Under the pieces are notes generated by a model. It was given only the letters and a program-made list of their open reading frames with translations, did no database searches and was not told the origin of the DNA. A program made the position numbers and the translations under genes. A stretch of DNA of 64,000 nucleotides from assembly GCA_040752695.1 (NCBI GenBank), contig JBFMGO010000002.1, forward strand, positions 18,564 through 82,563, read 5' to 3'. The DNA comes from a bacterium. GTDB lineage: Bacteria; SZUA-182; DTGQ01. Of this stretch, positions 9,645-63,200 are shown piece by piece. Position 1 is the stretch's first letter. Each line of letters starts with the position of its first letter.

Positions 9645-9697
9645 TAATGAAAATATTCCATGATCTGGTAAATGACCCTTTCCCTGGAACCGGGACC

Positions 9698-32600: not shown

Positions 32601-32696
32601 TTTTAGGGTGCCTGTTACTGAAGACCTCATACGTATGCACAATGCGGGGGGTTGAAGGTAAGAGCCGAGAGTTTAATCCCCCAGCAGGAATTTTGT

Positions 32697-34073
32697 ATGG
32701 CCAGAAAGAATCTTCTGTTAGTTGATGATGAAAAATGTATTCACGATATCTTCGCTGAATACTTTGATAATAAGTCTTACAAGTTAATCAGTGTCTTCGA
32801 TGGCACCGAAGCATTGAAGAAAGTCGAACAGGAGAAAGTTGATATCGTTCTTCTGGACATCAATATGCCTGGCCTGAACGGTCTGGAGACACTGAAGGAA
32901 CTCAAGAAAATTGATTCGCAGATTGTTGTCATCATCATAACCGGATACGGAACAGCGGACACAGCGATCGATGCCATGAAGTGTGGCTGTTATGACTATG
33001 TTACCAAACCCTTCCGTCTGGCAGAAATCAAAAACGTGATTGAAGCCGCCCTCATTGACAAGGATTATAATAAAAAGAATAAAAAGGGGAAAGATGCCCT
33101 TCCTCCCTACAAATCCGGCTCGATACCAATCATCGGACGGAGCAAGAAGATGCAGGAGGTTTACCGCCTTATCGCCCGCGTCATCAATACCGACTCCACG
33201 GTCCTGATTCAAGGGGAATCAGGTACGGGTAAAGATCTGGTAGCCAGGATTCTCCATTATAACGGCCCCAGGGGCAATAAGCCGTTCATTACCGTCAACT
33301 GCGCAGCTATCCCTGAGGCTCTTTTGGAGAGTGAGCTTTTCGGACATGAAAAAGGTGTCTATACCGGAGCCCACATCGCCAGAAGAGGAAAATTTGAACA
33401 GGCGGACGGCGGTACCATATTCCTGGATGAAATCGGCGATATGAGCCTCAATACTCAGGCCAAGATCCTTAGGGTTATGCAGAGCAAGACCTTTACCCGG
33501 ATCGGCGGAGAGAAAAATATTTACGCGGATGTACGGTTGATTACAGCCACGAACAAAGAACTTCGTAAGGCCATGAAGGATGGTTCATTTCGTGAAGATC
33601 TCTTCTACCGGCTGGATGTCCTGTCTTTGACCCTCCCCTCCCTGAGGGAAAGAAAAGAGGATATAGCCGATCTTGTCAACTATTTTATTGCGCGCTATAA
33701 TGAGATCGTCAATAAAAAGGTCTCCTTTATTTCTCCTGATGCCAGGGAATTAATCATGCGGCATGACTGGCCCGGAAACGTGCGGGAGTTGGAGCATGCC
33801 GTCGAGCATGCCATTGTTCTGGCCAATGGCTATGTGCTGCTGCCCGAACACCTGCCTGACAGCCTCAGGAGTCAGACGAAAAAACCCAGCTCCATCTCCC
33901 TGGACGTGGGTCTTTCCCTGGAGGAAGTGGAAAAGGTCTATATCCAGGAAACCTTGAAGATGGTCAACGGCAATCAGACCAAAGCGGCAAATATCCTCAA
34001 GGTCCACCGCAACACCCTCCATCGCCTGATGGAAAAAATGGACATCCGGCTCTCCAAAAACGATTACGCGTAA
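32697..34073 (+). CDS. NtrC-family sigma54 response regulator (FlgR/FlrC-like by position)
   Basis: REC, GESGTGKD, ESELFGHEKGVYTGA, FLDEIG, WPGNVREL, Fis HTH. Confidence 0.92.
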   Translation: MARKNLLLVDDEKCIHDIFAEYFDNKSYKLISVFDGTEALKKVEQEKVDIVLLDINMPGLNGLETLKELKKIDSQIVVIIITGYGTADTAIDAMKCGCYDYVTKPFRLAEIKNVIEAALIDKDYNKKNKKGKDALPPYKSGSIPIIGRSKKMQEVYRLIARVINTDSTVLIQGESGTGKDLVARILHYNGPRGNKPFITVNCAAIPEALLESELFGHEKGVYTGAHIARRGKFEQADGGTIFLDEIGDMSLNTQAKILRVMQSKTFTRIGGEKNIYADVRLITATNKELRKAMKDGSFREDLFYRLDVLSLTLPSLRERKEDIADLVNYFIARYNEIVNKKVSFISPDARELIMRHDWPGNVRELEHAVEHAIVLANGYVLLPEHLPDSLRSQTKKPSSISLDVGLSLEEVEKVYIQETLKMVNGNQTKAANILKVHRNTLHRLMEKMDIRLSKNDYA

Positions 34074-34651: not shown

Positions 34652-37111
34652 ATGAACGACATCATCAAGATACTTGTTATTGAGCGGGAACCAGTCGTAA
34701 GCAGACAACTCAAAAAGAGCCTGAACAGGGAGCAACACATTGTTTTTGGGGTCTCCAGCGTCATGGGAGCGGTAGAGCGCCTCAAATCCATTTTTTTTGA
34801 TATCGTGGTTGTTGACGTTTATCAGGACTGGAACGACCAGGAGGACTTTTTTCTTCTCCGGTCGATTACGTGGATGGCACCCAAAACCAAAATTATCCTT
34901 GTGGCTCCTGAGGATAAACAGAATCCGGCACGCAATGTGGAGGGACTGAAAATATTCGATTTCATTCATAAGCATAAGAAATTTAAAAATCTAATTGCAT
35001 CTATCAACCACTTGAAAAGATGCCTTCTGATGCCTGCCTCCTTCTTCTTTCTTTTCTCTTTATGCATCCTTTCCTTTCCTGTGCATCTTGTTGCTGCACC
35101 TTCCACTCTCCCGCCGATCGATTCCGGTGCGGCAACTTCCAGTACATCAACATCCGGTTCCAGTGCATTAACATCCGGTAGTGCATCAACATCCGGTTCC
35201 GATGCGTCGGCTTCCGCTGCGGTACTACCCGGAGCGGTACCTTCCGGTACACCGGCCTTTGATGCCTTACCCTCCACGGTTACATCCGTCATTTTCAAAA
35301 AGGCCATGAGTGACTTGCAGGCCAATAACCTGAAGGCAGCCAGGAAAGGTTTCGAGGAACTGATCTTCAATCACCCTGAAGCCCCGGAAGTGGTGGACAG
35401 TTATATATATCTTGGGAAAGTTTATGAAAACCTGAATCTGCCCTATGAGGCCACGGCCGTATATCATCAGTTTACTCAGGAATATCCTGACCACCAGTCA
35501 GCTCCAGAGATTTTAATGAGGCAGGGGGAAATCGCCTTTCAATTGGGCGAGATCAAGAAAGCGAAAGGGATTTTCAAGCATATTCTCTTTCAGTACCCGA
35601 ATACCAGTCTGGCCCCGAGTGCAGCTTTTCGCCTGGGGGACAGTCTCTATGAATTGGAGGATACCACTACTGCCCGCCTTTACTACGATGAGGGGATGGA
35701 GCACTCTCCTCAGTTTCTTGATGATCATCCGCAAACGGCTTTCAACATCGGCGGGCTCGCTCTGCAGGATAAGCGCTTCGATCGGGCCTTGAATATCTTT
35801 TTGGCCCTTGAGAAGAATTATCCGCAACTCGAATTGACCAGCAAGGCAGTGACCTTTTGTGGTGATATCTATGCAGAGCAGGAGAAGATTCCTGAAGCTG
35901 TTCTCGCCTACCAGAGAGTCATTGATAACTATCCTCACTCTATCGGGGCGCAGGTCAGCCAGATCCGCATGGCTGACCTGGGAGTGGAGCATCCCGATGT
36001 CGTAATCGAGAATCCGGCTTCCCCCCTGGACGCATTTCGCAATCCGATTCAGGCTTATCAGGAACTGCTCAAAAAAAAGACTACCGACCTGGTGCTGGCT
36101 CATCTGGCTGAATACAAACTCGGCCTGGCCTTTCAGAAGAAGGGGGACCATGGGGCTGCTGTTGCCGCTTTCCGGTCCCTGTTGGCCAAGGGGCCTGAAG
36201 AGAGGATCTATCAGAACGGCCTCTATGCTCTTAAACAGGAGTTAACCAATGAGCTCGATCAGTATTTCCGAAAAGAAGAGTACATGGCAGTCATCAAGAG
36301 CTATGAGGCGAACAGGGACCTGTTAGACCCCTTCTGGCACGAAGAAAAAACTCCTCTTCCCTATTTCAATGTGGCCAGGAGCTATCAAACCATGAGCTTT
36401 TATCCACCGGCCATGCGCCTTTATCAAGAAGCGCTCGGATTTGGAGCACAGGATACTCTCCATAGCCAGATACATTTCCACCTGGGACAGATTTTTTTCA
36501 AGACAGGGGAATATCAGAAGGCCCTCGATACGCTCAAGGAAGTTGCCCAAAAGTCGAAAACGCCCGGCCTGGCTTTTGCAGCCCTCTCACTCATGGCAGA
36601 TGCCTACCGGGAGGCGAAGGATTATACCAAAGCTCTCGATTACTATCAGGCCAGCCTCGCTATGCAGCCGCTTCAGCAGGGGCAGGAAAGAGAGCAACTC
36701 TTCAAAGCGGGACGGTGCTACGAGAAGATCGGCAAAATTCCTGAAGCTATCCAGTCCTTTGCCAAGGCTGCGGACCGTGCCCAAAAAGAAAAAGAAAAAG
36801 AAAAAGATAAAGATTCTCGATACCTTGCTGAAATCTACTTACATCTGGCAGATTGCCAGTATAAAATCGGTGAGTATTCTGAAGCACTTAAATCCTATCA
36901 ACACGTGCAGAATTCCTCTCCTTTGAAGGAGGACCTCGATTGGGTGCTTTTCCAGATAGGTAACTGCTCTTTGAAAACGTCAGAACCAAAAGCCGCGCTG
37001 GATGCCTTTCAAGAATTAAAAGCATCCAATCAGGACTCCATCTGGCCGATTGTTGCCGGTCTCAAAGAGTCAGAAGCCCGAATTCAAGGGGCAGAAGTTA
37101 CAGAGCAGTGA
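34652..37111 (+). CDS. Receiver-like N-terminus + hydrophobic segment + long TPR array
   Basis: KILVIE...FDIVVVD...KIILV; FFFLFSLCILSF; many TPR/YfiO-type repeats. Confidence 0.7.
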   Translation: MNDIIKILVIEREPVVSRQLKKSLNREQHIVFGVSSVMGAVERLKSIFFDIVVVDVYQDWNDQEDFFLLRSITWMAPKTKIILVAPEDKQNPARNVEGLKIFDFIHKHKKFKNLIASINHLKRCLLMPASFFFLFSLCILSFPVHLVAAPSTLPPIDSGAATSSTSTSGSSALTSGSASTSGSDASASAAVLPGAVPSGTPAFDALPSTVTSVIFKKAMSDLQANNLKAARKGFEELIFNHPEAPEVVDSYIYLGKVYENLNLPYEATAVYHQFTQEYPDHQSAPEILMRQGEIAFQLGEIKKAKGIFKHILFQYPNTSLAPSAAFRLGDSLYELEDTTTARLYYDEGMEHSPQFLDDHPQTAFNIGGLALQDKRFDRALNIFLALEKNYPQLELTSKAVTFCGDIYAEQEKIPEAVLAYQRVIDNYPHSIGAQVSQIRMADLGVEHPDVVIENPASPLDAFRNPIQAYQELLKKKTTDLVLAHLAEYKLGLAFQKKGDHGAAVAAFRSLLAKGPEERIYQNGLYALKQELTNELDQYFRKEEYMAVIKSYEANRDLLDPFWHEEKTPLPYFNVARSYQTMSFYPPAMRLYQEALGFGAQDTLHSQIHFHLGQIFFKTGEYQKALDTLKEVAQKSKTPGLAFAALSLMADAYREAKDYTKALDYYQASLAMQPLQQGQEREQLFKAGRCYEKIGKIPEAIQSFAKAADRAQKEKEKEKDKDSRYLAEIYLHLADCQYKIGEYSEALKSYQHVQNSSPLKEDLDWVLFQIGNCSLKTSEPKAALDAFQELKASNQDSIWPIVAGLKESEARIQGAEVTEQ

Positions 37112-37878: not shown

Positions 37879-39525
37879 ATGCCGACTATTTCTGAGGCGA
37901 TAACGAAATTTATCGACTCGTTTCGAAACCTTCCTCTCAACAGAAAAGTTACCCTTACCCTGGTACTGGTGCTTTTGGGAGGAGGAGTGGCAGCTCTTTT
38001 GAGCTGGGCCTACAGAACCAATTATCAGACTCTTTACTCCCGTCTCGATCCGGAGAATGCCGGAGCTATTGTGGACAAGCTGAAGGAAGCCAAGGTCCCC
38101 TACAAGCTCACGCAGGGAGGCAGCACTATCCTTGTTCCGGAAGGGAAAGTATACGAGCTTCGGCTGCAACTGGCCTCTGATAAGGTTCTGCAAAAGGGAA
38201 ACGTCGGTTTTGAACTGTTCGATCAGACCAATCTGGGAACCACCGAGTTCGTCCAGACCATTAACTATCACCGGGCACTGCAGGGAGAGTTAAGCCGCAC
38301 TATCGGCAGTCTGGCTGAAGTCGAATGGGCGAGGGTCCACCTGGCGATCCCTCAGAAGAGCCTGTTCGTCGAGAAGGAGCAGCCTCCCACCGCCTCGGTG
38401 GTTATCCGGCTGAAAGAGGGGAGCCGTCTGCGCAAGGCCCAGATCAATGGTATTGTCCATCTGGTTTCATGCAGTGTGGAGGGCCTTTCTCCTGAAAATG
38501 TCCAGATCATCGATGATCAGGGAAGGATCCTGAGCGAGAATTCCAATGATTATTCCAATCAGCTTTTACAGGCCACCAAGGTTGAATATCAAACCCAGGT
38601 GGAAGAAATCCTGGAGAAGAAGGTCACCAGCATGCTGGAAAAGGCTTTGGGAGAGAACAAAGTGATTGCCAAGGTTTCGGCCAGCTTGAACCTGAAACAA
38701 GTGGAAACGACAGAGGAGAAGTATGATCCTGACAGAACGGTCGTAAAAACGGAGCAGCGTACTCAGGAAGCGGCCCAGGGACAGACGCCGGTCACCCCGG
38801 CGGCCAACAATAATTCCAATTACCAGAAGTCGGACGAAATCATCAAATATGAATTGACCAAGGCCACCAATCATATCATTGAGCTCCCCGGCCAGATCAC
38901 CCGGTTATCCGTAGCTGTCCTGGTGGACGGAAAATACGAGAAACAGGATAAGCAAGGGGCCGATGGTCCGGGGGAAAAATACATCGCCCGCACACCGGGG
39001 GAGATGAAAAGCATACAGACGATTGCGGAAAAAGCGGTTGGCTATGATGCCAGCCGTGGAGACCAGATTGAGGTGGTCAATATTCCTTTCCACTCGGATT
39101 CCTCCAGCCAGCAGGGCCAGTCATCTTTCGATATAGCCAAAAATTGGCAGCTCTGGCTGAGTCTGGCCAAATATGGAAGCAGGGTGCTGCTGGTTCTTCT
39201 TGTCCTGCTCTTCATCTTTCGTCCCCTGTTAAAGTGGCTTTACCGCTTTGCCCCATCTCCTCCCGTTGAAGTGGCCGAACAAGGGCAGATCGGACAGACG
39301 GCAGCAGTTGCAGAATTGACCGACGATACGGTGGTCGAGGAACTGCAGCAAAAACTGCCTGCACGGCTCGACAAAGTGGAAGAGGCTTTCAATTTGGCAA
39401 ATAGCGAGGAAAGTAAATCGCTTGAGGAAATGGTTAAAGTTATCCGGGAAATTGCCAAACAGGAGCCAAAACGCATTGCGCAACTTACACATGAATGGCT
39501 GTTAGAGGAGAGAAAACAAACATGA
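37879..39525 (+). CDS. fliF: MS-ring protein FliF
   Basis: GFELFD, RALQGEL.RTI, ARVHLAIP, RLSVAVLVDG, RGDQIEV. Confidence 0.95.
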   Translation: MPTISEAITKFIDSFRNLPLNRKVTLTLVLVLLGGGVAALLSWAYRTNYQTLYSRLDPENAGAIVDKLKEAKVPYKLTQGGSTILVPEGKVYELRLQLASDKVLQKGNVGFELFDQTNLGTTEFVQTINYHRALQGELSRTIGSLAEVEWARVHLAIPQKSLFVEKEQPPTASVVIRLKEGSRLRKAQINGIVHLVSCSVEGLSPENVQIIDDQGRILSENSNDYSNQLLQATKVEYQTQVEEILEKKVTSMLEKALGENKVIAKVSASLNLKQVETTEEKYDPDRTVVKTEQRTQEAAQGQTPVTPAANNNSNYQKSDEIIKYELTKATNHIIELPGQITRLSVAVLVDGKYEKQDKQGADGPGEKYIARTPGEMKSIQTIAEKAVGYDASRGDQIEVVNIPFHSDSSSQQGQSSFDIAKNWQLWLSLAKYGSRVLLVLLVLLFIFRPLLKWLYRFAPSPPVEVAEQGQIGQTAAVAELTDDTVVEELQQKLPARLDKVEEAFNLANSEESKSLEEMVKVIREIAKQEPKRIAQLTHEWLLEERKQT

Positions 39526-40594: not shown

Positions 40595-41602
40595 ATGAGT
40601 AAAGTGAAGGTCGAACGGTCTGCACTGGAAGGCGATTCATTCAAGACATTCATGGAAAAGAAGGATCCTCTTTTTCAGTGTATCCAGCCTCCGCAGGATG
40701 CACGCTTTCGGCTGGTTCCCTTTCTGAGTACAAAAGGTGAAGGGAGTGCAGGTCCAATAACTGACAGCGGGGGGAAAAAAGAGGAGGAAGCGGAAGAAAT
40801 GTCTTCACTGAAGGCCGCTGACGACATTATCCGGCAAGGCGAAAAAATCGTCGCCGAGGCAAGGCAGGAGGCTGCCAGGATCAAAGAAGAGGCGTATCAA
40901 AAGGGTCTGTCTCAGGGCAGGGAAAAAGGGCAGAAGGAGGGCAGAAAAGAGGTGCGTGGCCGCTTTTTGCCCCTTGAGGACACGCTAAGGAATCTGATCA
41001 GGCAGGTCGAGCAGGTGCAGGAGGATATCCTGATCAAACAGGAGCAGGAAATCCTCCATTTATGCACTAAAATGGCACAAAAAATCGTGCACACCGAAAT
41101 CAGCCAGAACCCTCAGGTCATTTTGGCTACCCTGCGTGAGGGGCTGAAATCGGTCGCCCGGCGCAAGGTGGCAGCCATCAGGCTGAATCCTCGCGATCTG
41201 GAGCTTTTCCAGGGCATGAGAGAGGAAATCTCCCAATCGATTCTTAATCTGGAGGGGATTGCCCTGGAAAAAGATCCGGGTCTTTTACCTGGAGGATGCC
41301 TGATTCAGACCGATTTTGGGCATGTGGATGCAACGATAGAGACCCAGCTCCATGAGCTGGAAAAGACCTTTCCCACAATCGCTGACGATGGCGTGGCTGC
41401 TGACGATGGCGTGGCTGCTGACGATGGCGTGGCTGCTGACAGTGCCGTGGTTGCTGAAGGTTCCCTGGCTGCTGATCGTTTTATGATTGCTGACGGCTCC
41501 CAGGCTGTTGACGGTGGCGTGGTTAGCGGCGGTCCTGTGTTCCCTGACGGTTCCGTGCCTGCCGGCAGGAGCATCAGCACTGACAGTGGAGAGAAACGGT
41601 GA
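40595..41602 (+). CDS. fliH: Export protein FliH with repetitive C-terminal extension
   Basis: AYQKG..QG..KG..EG repeats, LNPRD, GGC.I.T..G.VDA. Confidence 0.88.
   Translation: MSKVKVERSALEGDSFKTFMEKKDPLFQCIQPPQDARFRLVPFLSTKGEGSAGPITDSGGKKEEEAEEMSSLKAADDIIRQGEKIVAEARQEAARIKEEAYQKGLSQGREKGQKEGRKEVRGRFLPLEDTLRNLIRQVEQVQEDILIKQEQEILHLCTKMAQKIVHTEISQNPQVILATLREGLKSVARRKVAAIRLNPRDLELFQGMREEISQSILNLEGIALEKDPGLLPGGCLIQTDFGHVDATIETQLHELEKTFPTIADDGVAADDGVAADDGVAADSAVVAEGSLAADRFMIADGSQAVDGGVVSGGPVFPDGSVPAGRSISTDSGEKR
41381..41596 (+). repeat. 18-bp tandem repeat (ADDGVA-type)
   Basis: GCTGACGATGGCGTGGCT x3 exact, then ~9 decaying units. Confidence 0.85.
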
Positions 41603-42996
41603 GTCAGGGCGGGCTTAATCTGGCCAAATACCACCGGTCCCTGCAAGGACTGAATCCCATTAAACGGTGTGGCAGGGTCAAAAGAGTCATCGGTCTGGTA
41701 ATCGAGGGGGCAGGCCCTGAGATTCCTCTGGGAGGTATGTGCGAAATCGAAGGTCCGGCGGGAGCGCCGCCGATCAAGGCGGAAGTTGTTGGCTTTCGAG
41801 AGGACAGGGTCTTGATGATGCCCCTTGGAGAAGTGCACGGCATCCAGCAGGGGAGCGTTATCCGGGCGGTGAAGCTGAAAGATGCCGTCAGAGTAGGACC
41901 ACGGCTTCTGGGCAGGGTCATTGATGCTCTGGCCAGGCCTATCGACGGAAAGGGAGAAATCCCCTTGCAGGAGGAGTATCCTTTCTACACCAATCCCTTA
42001 CGGCCTCTGGAGAGGGAGAGGATCTCGCAGCCCCTCGATGTCGGAATCCGGGCTATCAACGGCCTCCTGACCATCGGGAAAGGCCAGAAGATAGGTATTT
42101 TTGCCGGCAGCGGTGTAGGTAAAAGTGTTCTTTTGGGGCAAATGGCCAGAAATACCGAGGCAGGTGTCAATATCATCGCCTTGATTGGAGAGCGGGGGAG
42201 GGAGGTCAGGGAGTTCATCGAGAAGGATCTGGGAGAGGAGGGGCTCAAGCGATCCGTTCTTGTCGTTGCCACTTCGGATGAGTCCCCCCTTTTGCGCAGG
42301 CGGGGGGCCTTTGTAGCCACCACCCTGGCCGAATACTTTCGGGATCAGGGAAATCACGTCCTCATTATGATGGATTCCCTTACGCGCTTTGCCATGGCTC
42401 AGCGGGAAATCGGACTGGCTACGGGAGAGCCGCCTGCCACCCGTGGATACACGCCGTCTGTCTTCGCTTATCTTCCCACGCTTCTCGAGAGGGTCGGAGC
42501 ATCCAGCAGACCACAGAGCCCCTGTGGCGCAGGGAGCCCCTGTGGCGCAGGGAGCCCCTGTGGCACGGGAAGCATCACCGGCATCTATACGGTGCTGGTT
42601 GAAGGAGACGATATGAACGAGCCTGTTGCAGATTCCGCCAGATCGATTCTGGACGGGCATATCGTCCTGTCACGCGATCTGGCTGCCCAAAATCACTATC
42701 CTGCCATTGATATTCTGCACAGTATAAGCCGGGTCATGGGAGACATCACTCATGCGGAGCAAAGAGAGGATGCCCACCGCTTGCTCGAAATGCTGGCGAC
42801 CTACAAGAGAGTCGAAGATCTGGTGCAAATCGGTGCTTATAAGAGGGGGAGCAATCCGAAGGCTGACCGGGCGTTGAGCATGATTGACCCTATCAACGAA
42901 TTCCTCAGGCAGAAAATCGGGGAGAAGGCTGACCTGGACGCCAGTCTCAAAGCTTTGCGCAGCCTGCTTGCTTCCGTGAAGGACACCGCTCGTTAA
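41599..42996 (+). CDS. fliI: Flagellar export ATPase FliI
   Basis: GIFAGSGVGKS, IGERGREV, MDSLTRFAMAQREI, ILDGHIVLSR. Confidence 0.96.
   Translation: MSQGGLNLAKYHRSLQGLNPIKRCGRVKRVIGLVIEGAGPEIPLGGMCEIEGPAGAPPIKAEVVGFREDRVLMMPLGEVHGIQQGSVIRAVKLKDAVRVGPRLLGRVIDALARPIDGKGEIPLQEEYPFYTNPLRPLERERISQPLDVGIRAINGLLTIGKGQKIGIFAGSGVGKSVLLGQMARNTEAGVNIIALIGERGREVREFIEKDLGEEGLKRSVLVVATSDESPLLRRRGAFVATTLAEYFRDQGNHVLIMMDSLTRFAMAQREIGLATGEPPATRGYTPSVFAYLPTLLERVGASSRPQSPCGAGSPCGAGSPCGTGSITGIYTVLVEGDDMNEPVADSARSILDGHIVLSRDLAAQNHYPAIDILHSISRVMGDITHAEQREDAHRLLEMLATYKRVEDLVQIGAYKRGSNPKADRALSMIDPINEFLRQKIGEKADLDASLKALRSLLASVKDTAR
42517..42570 (+). repeat. 18-bp x3 in-frame repeat (SPCGAG)
   Basis: AGCCCCTGTGGCGCAGGG x2 + AGCCCCTGTGGCACGGGA. 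Confidence 0.92.
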
Positions 42997-43004
42997 GCCG
43001 ATAA
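42977..43004 (+). promoter_or_regulatory. Possible sigma28 promoter before fliJ
   Basis: TGAA-N16-GCCGATAA (perfect -10, imperfect -35 and spacing). Confidence 0.3.
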
Positions 43005-43091
43005 AAAAGATAAAAAATCCTGGAGACAGGAATAAGGATTCAGCAGTTCTGGTTTTGTTTTATGACTGCCAGATCTTACCTTTAAAAAACC

Positions 43092-43559
43092 ATGAAAAAG
43101 TTTCGCTTACAATCCATTCTCGAATACCGCCGCAGTCTGGAAGAGGAGATTCAACTGGAATTTGCACAGTCACAGACTCTTTTGGCAAGGGAAATGGAGC
43201 TGAGCTCTAAAATTCAGCACCAGATTGACATCTGGCAGCAGAGGTTACAGAAAAAGCAACATGAAGCAGGGAGCATCTTTGACAGCAGTTATCCGGTACA
43301 GATCGACCTTCTTCAGAAGTTTTTGCAATTTCTGACCGCAGAGGCGAAAAGGCAGGCTGAAAAAGTCCGCTCTCTTGAACTGGCTGCGGATAAAAAGCGG
43401 CAGGCGCTGCTAGAGGCCAGGCAGGAGCGAAAGGTCATGGAAAGGCTGAAAGAAAAGACCCTTGCGCTTTGGGAAAGAGAAATGCTGCAAGAGGAGCAGA
43501 AAATTCTGGATGAAAGAGCCATCAGTCAATACCGGGGGGTGCTGGATGAAGAAGGATAG
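43092..43559 (+). CDS. fliJ: Export chaperone FliJ
   Basis: FRLQSILEYR...ERKVMERLKE...EQKILDE; follows fliI. Confidence 0.88.
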   Translation: MKKFRLQSILEYRRSLEEEIQLEFAQSQTLLAREMELSSKIQHQIDIWQQRLQKKQHEAGSIFDSSYPVQIDLLQKFLQFLTAEAKRQAEKVRSLELAADKKRQALLEARQERKVMERLKEKTLALWEREMLQEEQKILDERAISQYRGVLDEEG

Positions 43560-44280
43560 CATGATGAAAAATTCCCCTGCCCCTTTGAGAAGAGGGGGAG
43601 GAAACACTCGGTCTGGCCGGTCAATGGCCAGGGAAAAACCTTCTGGGACCTTGATGAGGATACTTCTTGGTACAGCCGTGCTTTTTATGGCTCTTTACGC
43701 CTCCTTCATGAGAGGCTCCAAAATGAGCCGCCTGACATGGGCGCAGGAGAATGCAGCGAGTCCTGAGCCGCAATCAGCCTCGCGGTCAGCAGACTCAACA
43801 ACAGCGGCGAAATCCGGCGGCGGGCAGCAGAAGAGCGGGGTCACCTGGGACAGCCTCCGGGAGGTTCAGGAATCCTTGAATAAAAGAGAAGCCAGGATCA
43901 GGGAAAGTGAACAGATGCTGGAGCAAAAAGAACAGCGGATCGCCGGCATCGAGCAGGAGATTGTCAAAAAGATAGAGGAACTCAAGCTCCTGAAGCAGGA
44001 AATTGAACAAATGGGAAAGCAACTGGATGAGCAAAAGGAGCAGCGCATCAAGGAGCTTTCGAAGATCTTCGAGGGGGCTCCTCCGGAAAAGGCTGGCAGC
44101 ATCTTTGCCCAGACTGACGCCTCGACTGCGGCTGCAATCATTATGCGAATGGATAAAAGAAAAGCAGGACGACTCTGGGGATTCGTAGACCCGAAGCTGG
44201 CGGCTGAAATTACGAAGAATATTATAGCCGAAGACGCCAGGGCAAAGAAACTTTCTGACAGACGATCCAGTGGGCAATAA
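43546..44280 (+). CDS. motE: MotE/FlbB-like membrane-anchored coiled-coil protein (MgtE_N-like C-terminus)
   Basis: TM, coiled coil, LSKIFEGAPPEKAGSI...MDKRKAG; follows fliJ; start uncertain. Confidence 0.75.
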   Translation: MKKDSMMKNSPAPLRRGGGNTRSGRSMAREKPSGTLMRILLGTAVLFMALYASFMRGSKMSRLTWAQENAASPEPQSASRSADSTTAAKSGGGQQKSGVTWDSLREVQESLNKREARIRESEQMLEQKEQRIAGIEQEIVKKIEELKLLKQEIEQMGKQLDEQKEQRIKELSKIFEGAPPEKAGSIFAQTDASTAAAIIMRMDKRKAGRLWGFVDPKLAAEITKNIIAEDARAKKLSDRRSSGQ

Positions 44281-44342
44281 GGTATGGCAGTCTGGCAGGG
44301 GTCAGCCCTTAGTAGGTGCAATTTTCAAAAAGGAACAGCCGT

Positions 44343-45107
44343 ATGGACATCGCCACCGTAATCGGAATCGTTTTCGCCTTTGCTCTGGTAGTCGTTGCCA
44401 TGGTCATGGGCGGAAGTGTTTTGATCTTTATCGATATCCCCTCGATATTGATTACCGTCGGAGGGACAATCGGAGTGAGTCTCATGCACTATCCTTTGGG
44501 CGATGTCATGAGCGTAATCAAAGTGGTTAAGCACACCTTTTTCCAAAAGAAGCATGATCCGCAGGAGTTAATCAAAAAAATCATCGAAATGGCTAACATG
44601 GCCCGGAAAGAGGGACTCTTAGCCCTGCAGAATACAGCCAAAAGTCTTGAGGACCCGTTCATGCGGGTAGGAATCCAGGCTTTGGTCGACGGTCTGGAAC
44701 CCGATGCCATCAGGGATATCCTGTCCACCGATGTCGATCAGATGGACGACCGTCATTCCCACGGCGCTGAACTCCTCACCAGTATGGCTGGCTATGCACC
44801 TGCCATGGGGCTCATCGGAACACTGATCGGCCTTGTGCAGATGCTGCAAAATCTCAACGATCCCAGCAAAATCGGCCCCGGTATGGCTGTTGCCCTCCTC
44901 ACTACCTTTTATGGAGCACTTATGGCCAACATGATTTTTCTCCCCTTGAGCGGGAAGCTCAAAACGCGCGGCGCAGAGGAATCCCAGTATCGCCAGATTG
45001 CCCTGGAAGGCATCATCTCCATTTCCGGGGGCGCCAATCCACGCATTATTGAACAAAAACTCCACGCCTTCCTGCCGCCTAAGATGCGGATATCAAGCTT
45101 CAATTAA
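44343..45107 (+). CDS. motA: Stator protein MotA/PomA
   Basis: MDIATVIG, ARKEGLLAL, APAMGLIGTLIGLV, MAVALLTTFYG. Confidence 0.95.
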   Translation: MDIATVIGIVFAFALVVVAMVMGGSVLIFIDIPSILITVGGTIGVSLMHYPLGDVMSVIKVVKHTFFQKKHDPQELIKKIIEMANMARKEGLLALQNTAKSLEDPFMRVGIQALVDGLEPDAIRDILSTDVDQMDDRHSHGAELLTSMAGYAPAMGLIGTLIGLVQMLQNLNDPSKIGPGMAVALLTTFYGALMANMIFLPLSGKLKTRGAEESQYRQIALEGIISISGGANPRIIEQKLHAFLPPKMRISSFN

Positions 45108-45244
45108 TTGTGCCTCAAAATGCATGCACAATTATAATGCTTGCTTTCGGCAGATAAACAGACCAATTGAAAAACAAAAGCTGTCGCCATTACGTAAGGT
45201 ATTGATTTGACAATATATTTTTTCTATTGGTTTTTATGCTCAGT

Positions 45245-45260
45245 CGGCATTAATCTTGCT
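45245..45260 (+). promoter_or_regulatory. Putative sigma54 (-24/-12) promoter upstream of motB
   Basis: CGGCAT-TAATC-TTGCT; GG-N10-GC spacing exact. Confidence 0.55.
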
Positions 45261-45323
45261 GGAATAGAACTCACAGAAAGAGTTTAAAACCTGCTTTTAA
45301 TCGTGAGCTGACGGCCATGAAAA

Positions 45324-46157
45324 TTGAGTAAGAAAAATCATACTATGCACGATGATCCAACGAGAGGTAATTTTTTATCTGAAAAGGGCGATGCAACAAT
45401 CGTGCTGATGACCGCCCTGATGATGCTGCTGATGGCCCTTTTTGCGGTCTTGAACGCTCTGTCGGTGAAAGACGAAAAAAAGGAGCGGGCTGCTCTGGGC
45501 TCGGTTACCGAGAGTCTGGGCGTTCTTCCGGGCGGTATCCGGCCGGAGGTGGGCAAGGATTACCAGCTTGCATCTCCGCCCATTCTGGATGTAGGAGACG
45601 ACCTGGCCAGCAAGGGAATCAGCGTTGAGGCCCTCTACGACCTGATCCTCTCAAGTCCGGGGAAAAAGTGGTACCAGATAATCACCCTGAAAAAGTCAAA
45701 CGAGGGGTTGAATATATCGCTTTCGGATCAAAGTTTTTTTGCTTCGGGGACAGCGGATTTAGTGCCTGAGAAGTTAGCCGTGCTCGATAAAATCGGTGCA
45801 CTCATTCAGAAGTCATCCTGCGATGTTCTCATCAAAGGGCACACGGATGACACTCCCATGAGTTCAGGCACGTCGGGTAGATATAGTTCAAACTGGGAAC
45901 TGTCTGCCGCCAGGGCTATGAATATTCTGAAGCATTTTGTCCGGCAGGGCATCTCCCTCGTCCGTCTGGAAGCTGCGGGCTATGGAGAATACGATCCTCT
46001 TTTTCCCAACGATACGCCGGAGCACCGGGCTTTCAACCGGCGGGTCGAAATCCAGTTGGTTCAAAGAAGAAAAGAGGAAATTTTTTCAAAGGATAGCAAT
46101 AAGGATATCAATGTTCAAGGCTTTCTTTTCAAGATGCGCAACCTCAGGCGAGAGTAG
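45324..46157 (+). CDS. motB: MotB-like stator protein 1 (intact OmpA domain, no TM Asp)
   Basis: GHTDD, NWELSAARA, GYGE..P, NRRVEI; TM reads IVLMTALMMLL; alternative start 45345. Confidence 0.85.
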   Translation: MSKKNHTMHDDPTRGNFLSEKGDATIVLMTALMMLLMALFAVLNALSVKDEKKERAALGSVTESLGVLPGGIRPEVGKDYQLASPPILDVGDDLASKGISVEALYDLILSSPGKKWYQIITLKKSNEGLNISLSDQSFFASGTADLVPEKLAVLDKIGALIQKSSCDVLIKGHTDDTPMSSGTSGRYSSNWELSAARAMNILKHFVRQGISLVRLEAAGYGEYDPLFPNDTPEHRAFNRRVEIQLVQRRKEEIFSKDSNKDINVQGFLFKMRNLRRE

Positions 46158-46187
46158 AAGACAAGAAGTCGGAATCTTAAGGTCAGT

Positions 46188-46913
46188 ATGGCGAAAGAAA
46201 AGAAAAAACAAGAAACTGATCCACAGGCATGGATGTTCAGCTTTTCTGATTTGTTGACGAATATGCTGACCTTCTTTGTGCTGCTCTATTCGATGGGGTC
46301 CATGGACAATCTGACTTTTGAGTACGTTGTGGGTCCTTCACTGCGGGGGGCTTTGGGAATTATCAATCAGGGAGGGCTTACCAGCATAGGAAAGCCCAGA
46401 TTCATGCCGATTTCAGTGCCGCCGACCGAAGAATTCGCTCTCATCGAGGATGCGGTTGTCAAGGCGCTGCTGTCCAGAGGTGATGATCAGTCTAAGGATA
46501 AATCAATGCCGGTTTCTGATAAGTCACAGACAATAGACATATACGCCAATAGTAAATTCGCTCAGATATTATTTCCCGCACAGATTCTTTTTGAAAAAAA
46601 CAGCGCGGAAATTCTACCCCAAATGGCCCGGCATCTTGAGGGGATAGCGGAACTTTTAAAAAAATTCGCCCATCCCGTTCGCATCAACGGCTACAGCCAT
46701 TCGGCCTCTTTGGGGGGATCTGGAGCATCCCTTGAAGTCCTTTCGCTCAAGAGAGCATCGGCAGTTTTACAATTTTTTATCTCCAGAGGGGGACTTGCCC
46801 CTGAACGGTGCAGTATAGCCGGATATGGAGGATTAAGACACGAGGAAAGAAATGGCAAAAGTGAGGATTACGTAGAGGTTTTTATTATTAAGGCAATAAA
46901 TTACCCAATATAA
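46188..46913 (+). CDS. motB: MotB-like stator protein 2 (TM Asp present, degenerate OmpA domain)
   Basis: WMFSFSDLLTNMLTFFVLL; C-terminus GYSH, LSLKRA, EDYVEV. Confidence 0.82.
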   Translation: MAKEKKKQETDPQAWMFSFSDLLTNMLTFFVLLYSMGSMDNLTFEYVVGPSLRGALGIINQGGLTSIGKPRFMPISVPPTEEFALIEDAVVKALLSRGDDQSKDKSMPVSDKSQTIDIYANSKFAQILFPAQILFEKNSAEILPQMARHLEGIAELLKKFAHPVRINGYSHSASLGGSGASLEVLSLKRASAVLQFFISRGGLAPERCSIAGYGGLRHEERNGKSEDYVEVFIIKAINYPI

Positions 46914-47172
46914 AATATATTTAAAAACAATCGGTTTCCATTGCCTAGCTCTTCCGGATGCGACCTTTATTCCGATAGCGACTGTGGACTCATTCTTCCC
47001 TTGAGAGACTGCTCCCTCGAATTCTGTCTTGTGCTGCGTTTGGATGCAATTGCTCTTTTTCGCTCTATTTTACATCTTGTGCATGTTATTTCGTAATCGG
47101 GATCAGCCCTTGATCAGTTGATATTCATCACGGTCGGATTCGACGGCTTTTGCCCCTTTGCAGGAGGGAATC

Positions 47173-47682
47173 ATGGATTTCGGAATGTTGGATAACGCGA
47201 ATGAAAAGGGCTTCTTATCGACCAAGCTCTTGATCATCATCGGTATTGTCGTACTCCTTTTGGCAGGAGGAGGTGTATTCGCCTACCTGAAATTCATGTC
47301 GCCTTCCAAAAATGCCGAAGCTCAACAGCAGCAGGATGCTTCAGCCTCGGAGCCTCAGAATACTGCTGCCGTCACAGGGCCGGGGCCTATTTTTGACCTG
47401 AACACCTTTATCGTAAATCTCATGGGAGAGTCAGGAAGGCGCTACCTGAAGGTCACGATCAAACTGGAATTGAGTAAAGAACCACTGAAAGAGGAGATCA
47501 CCCTGAAGATGCCGGATATTCAGGACAATGTTCTCATTCTCTTGTCCAGCAAATCCTATGAGGATATAGCGGATGTTTCCGGCAAGATGCGTCTGCGTGC
47601 TGAGATTGTGAACCGGATCAACAACATCCTGACCTCAGGTGAGATTCGCAAGGTTTACTTTACAGAGTTTGTCATTCAATAG
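47173..47682 (+). CDS. fliL: FliL
   Basis: TM; FIVNL...RYLKV; VYFTEFVIQ. Confidence 0.92.
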   Translation: MDFGMLDNANEKGFLSTKLLIIIGIVVLLLAGGGVFAYLKFMSPSKNAEAQQQQDASASEPQNTAAVTGPGPIFDLNTFIVNLMGESGRRYLKVTIKLELSKEPLKEEITLKMPDIQDNVLILLSSKSYEDIADVSGKMRLRAEIVNRINNILTSGEIRKVYFTEFVIQ

Positions 47683-47790
47683 CTGTCAGCGGCCGGAGAA
47701 AATCTCCACTGCCCATCCAAAATCCCATGCCGTCGCGGGAAATGAGGAAGAAAAAGAGGGGGAGGGGGGCCGCAAAGAGAGATCTTAAAA

Positions 47791-48786
47791 ATGTCAACCA
47801 ATATGAATGATATCCTGTCACCAGATGAAATAAAGGCGCTCAGCGAAGCGGTTTTCGATGGCAAGGTCGAAACCGAAGATCAGATTTCTCCATCCCAGAT
47901 GGTAGCTGAGCTCGATTTGACCGATAAAAAGACGCTGCCTTCAAGGATGGTGGGTCTTGAGATCGTCAATAACCGCTTTGTCCGTAAATTCAGGGCAACA
48001 CTGTCAACGATGCTGAGGAAAGTGGTGGAAGTCGATATCATTTCCACAAATCACCTGAGCTTTGCAGATGTATCGAAGTCAATTCCTATCCCTTCCTGGA
48101 TCAATCTTCTGCATCTTGATCCTCTGCCCGGATCTCCCTTTCTGGCCTTCGATACCCATCTGGCCACGATTGTCATCGATTACCTGTGCGGAGGAAATGG
48201 TCATATAACCAAGAACTTGAAAAAAGAAGACTTTGGAGCCATTGAACAACATCTGATGACCAAGGTTACCCAGGAAACCATCAATTGTATGGAGGATGTC
48301 TGGAAGATTATTTTGTCTATTAAGATATTTGCCGGCGAGGTGGAATTCGACAGCCGTTACATTACCAGTGTTTCGCATGATGAAATGTTCGTGGTGACCT
48401 ATTTTTCAACCAAAATCGAGGAATCCACCGGCGTTCTCACCTGTGCCTTACCCTATACCACTCTTGAGCCGATCAAGCAGAAGCTGACCAGTACGGTCAG
48501 TAATGATGAGCAAAAAACCAGTTATTCATGGATGAATAATCTGAAAGAGTATCTTCCACAGATCGAGGCTGAAGTCAGTGTGGAGCTGGGGAGGAAAAAT
48601 GTCAGGGTTCGGGATTTACTGACCATGGAGATTGGGGAAATTATCAGTCTCGATCAATTCATCGGAGACGAACTTTTAGTCTACGTAGAAGGAATAACCA
48701 AGTTCAAGGGTTATCCGGGCCACTATAAAGGCAATAACGCCCTCAATATCACTTCGGTTCTCTCTCAGCAAAGGAGAAATACCTGA
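47791..48786 (+). CDS. fliM: FliM
   Basis: ILSPDEIKAL CheY-binding peptide, CheC-like middle, SpoA C-terminus. Confidence 0.9.
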   Translation: MSTNMNDILSPDEIKALSEAVFDGKVETEDQISPSQMVAELDLTDKKTLPSRMVGLEIVNNRFVRKFRATLSTMLRKVVEVDIISTNHLSFADVSKSIPIPSWINLLHLDPLPGSPFLAFDTHLATIVIDYLCGGNGHITKNLKKEDFGAIEQHLMTKVTQETINCMEDVWKIILSIKIFAGEVEFDSRYITSVSHDEMFVVTYFSTKIEESTGVLTCALPYTTLEPIKQKLTSTVSNDEQKTSYSWMNNLKEYLPQIEAEVSVELGRKNVRVRDLLTMEIGEIISLDQFIGDELLVYVEGITKFKGYPGHYKGNNALNITSVLSQQRRNT

Positions 48787-60231: not shown

Positions 60232-63200
60232 ATGATTTTAGCCAAGAATCCTTCATCGAATGCGGTTTTTCTTAAAAACAATGTGAAAACCTTACCTGCC
60301 AGGGTAGGCGCCAGGGAGGGAGAATCAAGTACAACCTTACCTGCCAGCGGTGTAGCCGGTGATTTTTTCCTCCGGTTCCTGAACCGCTCGCTTGATTTGA
60401 CCAAAGATCAGCCCAAAGGCATGAACAAAGGTCAAACCAGAGGTCAGCCCAAGGATCAGAGCGAGAATCAGGCGAAAATAGACAGAGATATGGGTGCAGA
60501 TCAATTCCCGGAGCAGGGGATAGAGCACGGCACAGAGCATGATACAACGCATGATGTTATGCAGAGCACAACGCATGATGTAATGCAGAGTATAATACAG
60601 GGTATAATGCAGGGTGGCAAATTTACTGCCAGGAAGATAATGCCAGGATTAGATATAATACAGAAAAAACAAGAAGTCTCTTCCCCTTACTTCCATCCGG
60701 TTCCTTCCCCAAAAGGGGAAGAGAACAGGGGATCAACTCTCCCCGGTGATGAGAAGGACAGTGGATTCTCCTCCTTCACAGGAGGCGAGGAGAATAGCGG
60801 ACCTTGGCATTATATGACTCCTCTTCTTCAGTGGGCAGATCAAATACCGCCCCATCGGCTGGAAAGAAACAGGGCTGACACAGGAGGGTCATTCACCTTT
60901 TCTTCAGTTGAAGAAACTCAGAATCCCTCCCTTTTTACAGAGATACAAAGTTCTCCTTTTTTAAAAGAGGATTCCAGGGATTCAGGCGGATTTTCAGCCA
61001 TACAAAGAACCTCCGCTCCACCCCTTTTCGAAAAGGGGGAAGCTTTTCCGCTTAAGGTAATCCCATTACCCTCCACGAGAGAGGAGAATAGTAAGGCTCC
61101 TCAGGATTTACGGCAATATGCACAAAATAGTACTCAACAGGCCACTCGGCCGGGCTTTCAGCAGGATATTCAACAATCTGCTCAACCAGGTCAGGGTATT
61201 CAGCAGGGTATTCAACAGATTGACCCGCACATTACCTGGCAATCTGTACAGCATGTTATACTTCAGCGCACTGCACAAGTTCAAAACCGCACTGTACAAA
61301 TTCAAGACAATGAAAACAGGCCACCCGATGATCTCCATTCGGACAATCCCCATCAGGAGAATATTGGTACGCTGAATATCAACCTGGAATTGCAGGAGAA
61401 TACGCGCATAGCTCATCATGAGGCGGAAAATGCGCGGGTCCGGCAGTCAGTGAGCACTGAAGAAATCATGGAGGAGAATCTCCTATTCCCATCCTTAAAG
61501 TCATCACCGGCCAGGCATCTGGCTGATCAGGAAATAAGTTTGGATCAATTACCGCTATCTATCGGTAAGATGAAATATCCACCTCTCGAAGCGACGCAAA
61601 AGACCATAAGCATTTCTCCTGCAATAGAGGGTCACTATCCAGCAACAGATGGACGCAATCCCACAATAGAGGGTCCCTATCCAGCAACAGACAGATGTAA
61701 TTCTGCACTGGAGATGTATCATCCGCATCGTCCCACGATAGAGGAGCATCCTCTTTCCCCACCCTTTTCAGAAGAGGGCAGGGGGGATTTTCAGATGAAA
61801 GCAAATCAGGACAGGAACTACTCCTGGCATACATCAGTTCAAGCAGCGCAACCAAATCAACCAGATGAATCAGCGCACTTATTCCAACCCATACAGCTAA
61901 GTCAACCAAATCAACCAGCGCAGCTAAGTCAGCAAAATCAACCAGCGCAACGAATGCAACCAACTCATTTATCTGCTCAATTACCTCAATCTGCTCAACT
62001 ATCTTATCGGCCATTTCAAGCATATCAATCAGTTCAACTAAGAGAGGTCGAAGAATCCGATATCGGCTCTACGGGTGCATTCTTACACCTTCAGGATTCG
62101 TCCGAGAATCTGGTATCTATTCCTATCTCTACTCCTGATCTTCATCAAGGATCTGAGGTTGAAGAGAAACATCTGCCGAAGGAGGGGGGAGAGCTGGATC
62201 AAGAAACGACAGGTGACTTGTCGCCTTTTCCGCCAGACCATATTCCCTCGTCTGTTCCTTCCCTTAATGATAAAAAAGAGGCAGTTTTCATGATAAGTCC
62301 CGAGCCGCCGATTTCTGGGGACAGTGCAGGACTGCCAGCCTCACCCGGTACGGATTCCTTTGTTCTTGAGGAGAGTAATCCGGTAATTCAACCGGATTCC
62401 CATCAGGTTGATCAACCGTGTGCCCATCAGGTTGCTCAGCAGGTTGATCAGTCGGATGCTCAGCAGGTTGATCAACCGTGTGCCTATCAGGTTGATCAGC
62501 AAGTTGATCAGCAAAGTGCTGCGCCGGTTGTTCAAGAAGCAAGCAATGCAGTTAATCGGACGATTTCCCACCTGAACGCTCAGCCAATTGCTCAGTCGAT
62601 TGCTCAGAGTGTAGGCCCGTCAGACCTAACCGCTGTAGGATCCCTTTCTCATGAGCAGATCAAGCAGGTTGCCCAGCCGATAGCCCACCAGACTATTCAA
62701 GAGGAGAACAATCCATCTGCTCAGTTAATTGCTCAGCAGAATATTCAATCGGTTGCTCAGAGTGGAGGATCGCCATCACCATCCGTTGGGGGTTCTCTTT
62801 CTGCTGGTGAAAATAAGCAAGTTGCTCAGCTGGTTGCACAGCTAACAGATCAGGATGTAGTAGCCCGGCAGATAGCTCAGACAAAGAGTGAAGGATCGCC
62901 AGCACAAACCTCTACGGATTCCCTTGCTTCTGAGGCGAATAAGCTGGTCGCTGAGCCAGTTGCCCAGGATGCAGCTCATCCAATTTCTCAGGATGCAGCC
63001 CAGCCGGTTTCTGATGATGTAGCCCAGCAGATAGCTCAGGATGTAGCCCAGCAGATAGCTGAGACACAGAGAGAAGGGGTGCCAGCCCCAACCGTAGCGG
63101 GTTCCTCTACGCCAGAGGAGAGCAAGCTGATTGCTGAGCCAGTTGCCCAGGATGCAGCCCAGCCGGTTTCTGCGGATATAGCCAAGCAGGTAGCTGAGAT

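Follow-up and report, generated by a model that had tools for sequence, protein, structure and literature searches.

Complementary residue losses in a tandem MotB pair and a candidate heterodimeric flagellar stator

The flagellar cluster in a 64,000-nucleotide (nt) stretch of contig JBFMGO010000002.1 (the window) encodes one stator A subunit, MotA, followed by two dissimilar MotB proteins, MotB1 and MotB2. MotB1 has alanine at the position of the ion-binding aspartate (Asp) of the stator channel and retains the residues that bind the cell wall; MotB2 retains the channel Asp and has lost the wall-binding Asp and arginine (Arg). Judged from alignments, profile searches, and gene order, MotB1 is a member of an old, large, widespread, and apparently undescribed family of Asp-less MotB paralogues. 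We put at about one half the probability that the two proteins share a mixed MotA5:MotB1:MotB2 unit with one ion site, and their physical cooperation is the simplest reading of the comparative data. No description of an Asp-less MotB paralogue or of a MotB heterodimer was found in the literature searched, which largely excluded subscription journals.

Reciprocal losses in the two MotB proteins

Open reading frame (ORF) calls and Pfam matches show a complete flagellar cluster on the plus strand of the window. The stator genes within it, and the segments of their products that matter here, are as follows.

44316-45107, plus strand: motA (Pfam MotA_ExbB, 1.7e-32; NCBIfam PomA/MotA-type matches)
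45324-46157, plus strand: motB1, the Asp-less MotB paralogue (277 amino acids (aa) from TTG; likely start ATG at 45345, giving 270 aa)
45390-45392, plus strand: Asp23 of MotB1 (Asp of "KGDA"), lying 8 residues ahead of the channel position and just before the predicted helix
45393-45464, plus strand: transmembrane (TM) helix of MotB1, residues 24-47 (helix 17-40 of the 270-aa model)
45414-45416, plus strand: codon of Ala31, at the ion-binding Asp position of MotB (alignments to canonical and solved MotBs)
45474-45515, plus strand: post-TM "plug-like" helix of MotB1 (MotB_plug profile positions 24-57; model helix 44-57)
45675-46064, plus strand: OmpA-like peptidoglycan-binding domain of MotB1 (Pfam OmpA, 9e-17; predicted local distance difference test score (pLDDT) of the model above 90)
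46188-46913, plus strand: motB2, a MotB with the channel Asp and a degenerate wall anchor (241 aa; ORF call and Pfam)
46221-46301, plus strand: TM helix of MotB2, residues 12-38 (model helix 12-38)
46248-46250, plus strand: channel Asp21 of MotB2 (Asp column of the sequence alignment)
46524-46895, plus strand: OmpA-like domain of MotB2, fold kept and ligand residues lost (Pfam OmpA, 4e-10)

An earlier note, made from the DNA alone, had described a single motA and a pair of motB genes here, with alanine for the ion-binding Asp and canonical peptidoglycan motifs in MotB1 and with the Asp kept but the OmpA motifs eroded in MotB2. Each part of this description was borne out. The channel column was set both by alignment with canonical MotBs and by profile alignment to the solved Clostridium sporogenes MotB (6ysf/8ucs), and the two alignments agree in placing Ala31 there. 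The wall-binding motifs GHTDD (45837-45851), NWELSAARA (45891-45917; SNWELSAARA with the preceding residue), and NRRVE (46035-46049; NRRVEI) are intact in MotB1, whose length from the ATG is also that of the MotB1 protein called in databases. Besides the OmpA match, Pfam returned for MotB1 a MotB_plug match that is weak (its 22.3 bits fall below the cut-off of 24) and confined to profile positions 24-57, and neither a signal peptide nor a scaffold-type domain was found. The helix reads LMALFAVLN, a looser form of the LLAFFxxLN motif of the wider family, and the plug-like helix is followed by an ALGS..G.LPGG motif that is also common to canonical partner MotBs. An AlphaFold2 (AF2) model with an overall pLDDT of 78.5 contains the TM helix, a post-TM helix at the plug position, and the OmpA-like core. 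A profile of the MotB1 family aligned end to end (positions 2-241) with the MotB solved inside an A5B2 unit (6ysf/8ucs, 1e-56). MotB1 thereby combines a single N-terminal TM helix homologous to that of MotB, a plug segment, and an OmpA-like domain with the peptidoglycan-binding Asp and Arg, and lacks the conserved ion-binding Asp of the TM helix. A search of the ESM Atlas gave generic MotB/OmpA clusters only, and a genome-contig scan with MotB1 alone gave distant MotB/OmpA proteins and no close relative, the close ones having come from a separate genome search.

MotB2 presents the complementary picture. GYSH (46689-46700) replaces GHTD, and NGKSEDYVEV (46851-46880) replaces NRRVE. The protein matches MotB_plug (3.3e-14) and OmpA (4.3e-10) in Pfam and the 6ysf MotB over its full length (1.3e-12). 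Its predicted model has a pLDDT of 64 overall and 77-87 in the core, and the C-terminal domain has an OmpA-like fold for which the top Foldseek matches were Helicobacter pylori MotB-C, MotS-C, and PomB-C (E about 1e-8). A TM helix with Asp, a plug, and an OmpA-like fold are thus all found in MotB2, and the peptidoglycan-binding Asp (of GHTD) and Arg (of NRR) are absent. Neither MotB contains a TolA_III or TonB_C domain, which, with a long Pro-rich linker, marks the TolA/TonB-type third subunit of 5:2 motors, Pfam returning MotB_plug and OmpA only. The MotA of the window is a canonical stator A subunit (8e-69 against C. sporogenes MotA of the solved A5B2 unit and 9e-68 against PomA).

The count of a single motA with two genes for MotB also holds across the source assembly, which is 96.6% complete. 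MotB_plug matches above the cut-off occurred at the motB1/motB2 locus only, where there were two; a third match of 18 bits fell in a 61-aa frame. Among seven MotA_ExbB matches, the only flagellar-size MotA (263 aa) is the window gene, while five of the other six lie in open frames of 208-220 aa and the sixth in one of 644 aa. The 644-aa frame, whose MotA_ExbB domain lies outside the window (G000:C36:6750-7073), is much longer than MotA, ExbB, or TolQ.

The collection contains 20 species genomes of the small phylum-level lineage to which the source organism is assigned. Each of the four other genomes that encode a close MotB1, two from the same genus and two from different genera within the family, has the order motA-motB1-motB2-fliL. 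An Asp-less MotB1 accompanies an anchor-less MotB2 in five of the five trio-bearing genomes of the family, and the pattern goes beyond chance. A further family relative with a 95% complete genome gave no MotB_plug match and no MotA match. Residues were counted in 18 MotB1-clade and 21 MotB2-clade sequences, in which some metagenome proteins duplicate genome ones; the window's own proteins (P0001 and P0122), two proteins with long N-terminal extensions (P0010 and P0124), and three that are N-terminally cut (P0015-P0017) were left out. The Asp column of the MotB1 clade holds Ala in 14 sequences and Gly in 4, and the wall-binding Thr, Asp, Asn, Arg, and Arg are kept in 18 of 18. All 21 MotB2 sequences keep the channel Asp. 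At the anchor Asp position they have His (13), Gly (3), Tyr (2), Ser (2), or Arg (1), and at the anchor Arg position Thr (7), Gly (5), Val (3), Asn (2), Asp (2), Ser (1), or Lys (1).

Both motB1 and motB2 are under purifying selection. The ratio of nonsynonymous to synonymous substitution rates (dN/dS), read within the genus as more distant pairs were saturated, was 0.15-0.23 for motB1, 0.08-0.15 for motB2, 0.09-0.18 for fliL, and 0.04-0.075 for motA; relaxed selection on MotB1, which the earlier note had named as grounds for abandoning its proposal, was thus tested for and not seen. Mean pairwise identity in MotB1 is 0.77 in the TM region (scored over residues 22-47, which include the Gly-Asp ahead of the helix), the highest value in the protein, versus 0.66 in the OmpA-like domain. 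The corresponding values in MotB2 are 0.84 for the scored TM region (residues 14-37) and 0.59 for the degenerate OmpA-like domain.

The spacer between motA and motB1 measures 216-237 nt in the window, depending on the start codon chosen, and about 210-250 nt in all five family genomes; in the wider family, motA and the first motB abut in most metagenome loci. Two conserved sites lie in the spacer.

45125-45140, plus strand: conserved box TGCAC-AATTATAATGC just 3' of motA (columns invariant in the five-genome spacer alignment)
45245-45260, plus strand: sigma-54-type -24/-12 promoter-like site, GGCAT-N6-TTGCT

The block GGCATT(A/G)AT(C/T)TTGCT is conserved in all five family genomes, and the rest of the spacer has diverged. 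By itself the sigma-54 pattern has no significance within the window, where 5.1 matches are expected and 4 were found; only its cross-genome conservation counts. The TGCAC-AATATAATGC box lies about 105 nt upstream of the sigma-54-like block and is a possible activator site or -10 box; motB1-motB2-fliL may start a sigma-54 unit of their own. A sigma-54 activator gene is located at window positions 32652-34073.

A family of MotB paralogues without the channel aspartate

The best 150 matches were taken from a search of 1.84 billion representatives with a profile built from MotB1 and the proteins nearest to it. From these, 111 representatives of 195-300 aa were analysed, after 37 of the 148 new ones had been dropped as shorter than 195 or longer than 300 aa. 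The Asp column of the 111 holds Asp in 49, Ser in 26, Ala in 22, Gln in 4, Thr in 4, a gap in 1, and five other residues once each, so that 61 of the 111 lack the Asp. These 61 have in common an LLAFFxxLN-type helix and, after the TM helix, the segment ALGSxxGxxGxLPGG; in 52 of them both anchor residues, Asp and Arg, are intact. The few that carry names are called "OmpA family protein" or "MotB" and come from metagenome-assembled genomes (MAGs) of Thermodesulfobacteriota, Nitrospiria, and Tectomicrobia.

Gene order was followed in metagenomes, where a scan with the helix motif, which by construction admits Ser, Ala, or Thr at the site, recovered 80 loci (Ser in 64, Ala in 8, and Thr in 8). Among the 58 loci whose upstream room exceeds 800 nt, 57 have a motA gene directly upstream of the Asp-less motB; it is present in the 58th too, masked by an overlapping ORF call. 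An Asp-bearing motB comes directly downstream in all 70 of those whose downstream room exceeds 250 nt, and fliL, fliM, fliN, and fliP usually come next after the pair. The two motB genes are separated by at most 30 nt in 64 of 72 loci when the gap is measured to the earliest start codon that is possible. When a strict DNA pattern for the helix was run over 401 species genomes from another phylum, the one to which a Desulfobulbales MAG belongs, it gave 31 matches in 28 genomes (8 in the reversed control); 12 of the 20 loci fetched from this search contain motA, a MotB with Ala or Ser, and a MotB with Asp, and the other 8 were chance matches. The MotB1 of the window fits the family in its non-acidic channel residue, helix type, post-TM segment, wall motifs, and place between motA and an Asp-bearing motB.

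The site itself varies at the edges of the family. In two zetaproteobacterial MAGs (L006, 3941-5412; L008, 3965-5427) motA is followed by a gene for a MotB1-type protein whose site residue is Glu, by one for a MotB that has Asp and GHTN, and by fliL, and some related zetaproteobacterial representatives have Gln there; the family site is thus not always uncharged.

In a tree of 81 MotBs, 32 MotB1-like proteins and 31 partners fell on opposite sides of one branch (Shimodaira-Hasegawa-like approximate likelihood ratio test (SH-aLRT), 95). When the tree was rooted on a Paenibacillus MotB for viewing, each group formed a clade together with one member of a tandem pair from G006, a genome of the same order as the source organism (SH-aLRT, 93 and 95). 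The MotB1-like and partner MotBs appear as two old clades, which implies long-standing retention of the two as a pair. Old paralogy is also favoured by the helix Asn, the post-TM motif, and a C-terminal GF.F tail shared by several distant members. Recent local duplication as the source of the pair is disfavoured by the tree, yet an approximately unbiased (AU) test does not reject it (p 0.09). A class-level relative, G013, has motA (1817-2590, minus strand), a canonical MotB (920-1660, minus strand), and a MotB with Cys at the Asp site (151-996, minus strand) on one contig (L069, G013:C347), with the Asp-bearing and Asp-less MotBs in the reverse of the window order. The N-terminal 75 residues of a third MotB frame in the same genome (L068, G013:C378, 1021-1968) resemble the start of a J-domain; it may be a fusion or include an upstream gene in the same frame.

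Loss of the wall anchor occurs in some partner MotBs and has a history of its own. Four complete partners lack the anchor (L120, L121, L123, and L143), and one partial gene (L141) is also without the Asp. A tree that joins partner with single MotBs requires four changes for the degenerate anchor state, at least two of which are forced by strongly supported branches; on this tree, partner MotBs lost the anchor residues at least twice. GHTD and NRR were kept in 15 of 15 single MotBs adjoining motA in named genomes, a small and nonrandom sample, and both anchor residues were kept in 48 of the 49 Asp-bearing representatives, among which two of the named singles are also counted. In these alignments, decay of wall binding has so far been seen only in MotBs that have an Asp-less, anchor-competent neighbour.

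Stator arrangements compatible with the pair

We propose one kind of stator unit, in which a MotA pentamer would surround a MotB1:MotB2 heterodimer. MotB2 would supply the sole ion-carrying Asp in the channel, and the other axle position would be taken by MotB1, which has no ionisable residue at the channel site (Ala in the window; Ser, Ala, or Thr across the wider family) and would also supply the peptidoglycan anchor. Since the MotB2 of the window lineage is without the anchor ligand residues, neither homodimer would be both powered and anchored, which would make the heterodimer obligatory. The data establish the residue states with their conservation, the purifying selection, the constant gene order, and the presence of one motA; from these we infer that the MotB1 helix lies inside the MotA ring, that MotB1 pairs with MotB2, and that the one-Asp unit turns. 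Rotation with one Asp would cost an ion for every 72 degrees or else call for a half-step without power. More tentative, and in our estimate somewhat more doubtful than probable, is the fuller version, a naturally occurring 5:1:1 stator whose rotation relies on one ion-binding carboxylate, the MotB2 Asp meeting a MotA subunit every 72 degrees, with half the canonical ion use per turn and with the heterodimer obligatory in the window lineage. MotB1 would then present a Ser or Ala face that cannot be ionised and would provide the wall anchor.

The mixed unit is favoured by the presence of a single flagellar MotA and only two MotBs in a nearly complete genome. The reciprocal residue states across the family, the purifying selection on both genes, the steady placement of the pair behind motA, the age of the two clades, and the repeated anchor loss among partner MotBs speak for it as well. 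That MotB1 may form part of the axle is suggested by its TM region, the most conserved part of the protein, by its end-to-end match to a solved MotB, and by the retention of the plug-like motif, which would be unexpected for a mere membrane anchor. Across the 32 loci in which all five genes are complete, distance matrices correlated at 0.83 for MotA-MotB1, 0.76 for MotA-MotB2, 0.52 for MotA-FliL, and 0.29 for MotA-FliM. After FliM and FliL were regressed out, the partial r was 0.76 for MotA-MotB1, 0.79 for MotA-MotB2, and 0.74 for MotB1-MotB2. MotB1 tracks MotA as closely as MotB2 does, which is suggestive, although the pairs are not independent and neighbouring genes share history.

This caveat is one of several points that weigh against the mixed unit. 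MotB Asp mutants of Escherichia coli are reported to be dominant-negative. The anchor Asp and Arg are intact in 56 of the 60 complete partner MotBs from the 80 metagenome loci, and the canonical partner of most lineages could run as a homodimer with MotB1 as an accessory. A tree that forces the MotB1 and MotB2 of the window family together is 25.8 log-likelihood units worse and is not rejected (p-AU 0.09). G006 (93% complete) encodes a tandem pair in which both members carry the channel Asp (L040/L070, G006:C1; L040 ORFs 2216-3010 and 1492-2226, both minus strand), with no motA adjoining the pair and no flagellar MotA found with the window MotA as query. According to a mechanistic report (10.64898/2026.04.14.718414), rotation needs alternating protonation of both Asp residues, and in its model each Asp hydrogen-bonds a MotA Thr; the corresponding column, Thr197, is invariant in our MotA alignment.

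As the partner MotB is usually canonical, the split of labour is complete only in the window lineage and a few others. The earlier note's idea of labour divided between ion conduction and wall anchoring is partly supported: the reciprocal loss is real, conserved, and under purifying selection, and the idea has to be widened to take in the Asp-less family as a whole. In that family, pairing of an Asp-less with an Asp-bearing MotB is widespread, and erosion of the partner's anchor is not.

The main rival, in our judgement unlikely but to be taken seriously, is that a MotB2 homodimer forms the working MotA5B2 stator and that MotB1 is a separate wall-anchored scaffold or docking accessory acting through periplasmic-domain contacts, its helix merely a membrane anchor. 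T-ring or PflB-type scaffolds hold stators elsewhere through periplasmic contacts. A docking role would suit the fully canonical partners counted above, and loss of wall binding by MotB2 would be tolerable if MotB1 were the docking site. The two-Asp unit fits the published mechanism (10.64898/2026.04.14.718414), and stators relying on extra periplasmic scaffolds are known (PMC7990780). What docking leaves unexplained is the conservation of the MotB1 helix and plug, the TM region being the best conserved part of the protein; nor does it account for a MotB1 that tracks MotA as closely as MotB2 does and in which Pfam finds MotB_plug and OmpA rather than scaffold-type domains, with no signal peptide. 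It is also conceivable, though improbable, that two alternative units are built, an active MotA5(MotB2)2 and an inert, well-anchored MotA5(MotB1)2 that would brake the motor, hold places, or regulate how many stators there are. Both MotBs keep every MotA-facing feature, and the separate sigma-54-type promoter-like site ahead of motB1 could allow regulation apart from motA. The tight linkage of the two motB genes, almost always co-oriented and mostly within 30 nt of each other (64 of 72), argues instead for equimolar synthesis; moreover, the active MotB2 homodimer of the window lineage would be without a wall anchor, and a conserved inert competitor across several phyla seems costly.

Two further alternatives concern the function of one MotB by itself. 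MotB1 might conduct ions as a homodimer through Asp23 or another acidic or polar route, which we consider very improbable. Asp23 is kept in 17 of the 18 clade members, and zetaproteobacterial relatives have Glu or Gln at the channel position; however, one family member has Asn at the Asp23 position, Asp occurs there in just 13 of the 80 loci of the wider family, and the residue lies 8 positions before the channel site, ahead of the predicted helix. On the same counts, the upstream Asp was rejected as a general substitute, and its replacement of the channel Asp in MotB1 is unlikely from the alignments; the structural substitution by the KGDA Asp that the earlier note had raised against its own proposal is thus not supported. 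That one motB is a decaying duplicate without function is scarcely credible. Each MotB has lost residues held essential in the family, but what is seen of selection and conservation contradicts this reading: both genes have dN/dS values well under 1, both frames are intact in five genomes and dozens of metagenome loci, and the split between MotB1 and its partners is ancient.

The locus, known systems, and significance

The stator genes lie in the middle of the cluster, the flanks of which are marked by the following genes.

37879-39525, plus strand: fliF, followed by fliG, fliH, fliI, fliJ, an FlbB-like gene, and motA
47158-47682, plus strand: fliL, next after motB2 (Pfam FliL, 1.7e-26)

On the 3' side of fliL the same cluster continues with fliM, fliN, fliO/P/Q/R, flhB, flhA, flhF, flhG, and fliA. 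An Rfam scan of window positions 43000-48000 gave no match at E up to 0.1, and a look-up of sequencing runs, RNA included, listed none. Translation shows short peptides repeated in tandem, ADDGVA three times near the C terminus of FliH (about 41380-41460) and GAGSPC-type repeats inserted in the FliI ATPase (about 42490-42570). Just 5' of the flagellar genes is a gene for an 819-aa protein with a receiver domain and many tetratricopeptide (TPR) repeats (34652-37111). The window also encodes three giant secreted-type proteins (27-5387, 9647-13546, and 14051-18313). Two are beta-helix/NosD-like, one of them also matching Chlamydia PMP repeats and cytochrome c7; in the remaining protein (1420 aa) the matches are to a pyrroloquinoline quinone (PQQ)-type propeller, MopE copper-binding, cohesin, and dockerin. 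The frame at 60232-63999, open for more than 1256 aa, continues past the window end and gave no Pfam match at 1e-5.

The closest known systems are the canonical units MotA5MotB2 and PomA5PomB2, of which several have been solved (6ysf, 8ucs, 6ysl, 8bri, and 6ykm). The window shares with them the same A subunit, two MotBs that are both full-length homologues of solved MotB, the order of TM, plug, and OmpA-like domain, and the position in a flagellar operon. Unlike them, it has two dissimilar B genes per A gene, one without the channel Asp and the other without the wall-binding Asp and Arg, and a unit containing both would have one ion site rather than two. A precedent for a mixed axle is the Myxococcus gliding motor, in which the MotA/TolQ-like AglR works with two different MotB/TolR-like partners, AglQ and AglS; this motor is not flagellar and is not known to have an OmpA-like anchor. 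MotY is an extra wall-binding OmpA-like protein that helps to hold stators; it is secreted and periplasmic and is not known to have a MotB-type TM helix and plug. Against the MotY model of NCBIfam, MotB2 scored 15.6 bits (E 0.0095; cut-off 400), and MotY did not appear among the 25 listed of the 36 matches of MotB1. In Aquifex aeolicus, as described by Takekawa et al. (2015; PMC4525482), one motA is followed by motB1 and motB2 in one operon; the TM regions of the two MotBs are 97% identical and their periplasmic parts differ, and each MotB, as a chimera, worked alone with MotA in E. coli. The window resembles that operon in having a single motA with two motB genes, but its two TM regions differ at the key residue and its defects are complementary. 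More than one B-type subunit per flagellum is also found in dual-stator bacteria such as Pseudomonas with MotAB and MotCD (10.1101/2025.11.06.686970); these have two complete A/B sets, each with its own Asp, whereas the window has a single A. Desulfovibrio vulgaris may carry genes for MotA, an "OmpA family protein", and MotB in succession, an arrangement on which a literature search returned nothing.

Present annotation does not tell the proteins of the Asp-less family apart and names them "OmpA family protein" or "MotB". The family is spread over several phyla, closed genomes included (three of the twelve trio loci from the 401-genome search are at megabase coordinates on contig 1), and genetics should therefore be possible. 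Current stator models, and by extension those of ExbBD, TolQR, GldLM, and ZorAB, rest on two equivalent aspartates that alternate, and a motor family that had evolved with one aspartate removed would be a ready-made test of them, bearing on step size, ions per turn, torque per unit, and the route from a symmetric dimer to a fixed heterodimer. The window lineage is the clearest natural case, because in it the ion site and the wall anchor are on different chains. If a unit turning on one carboxylate is real, alternating protonation of two aspartates would not be a universal requirement of 5:2 rotary motors.

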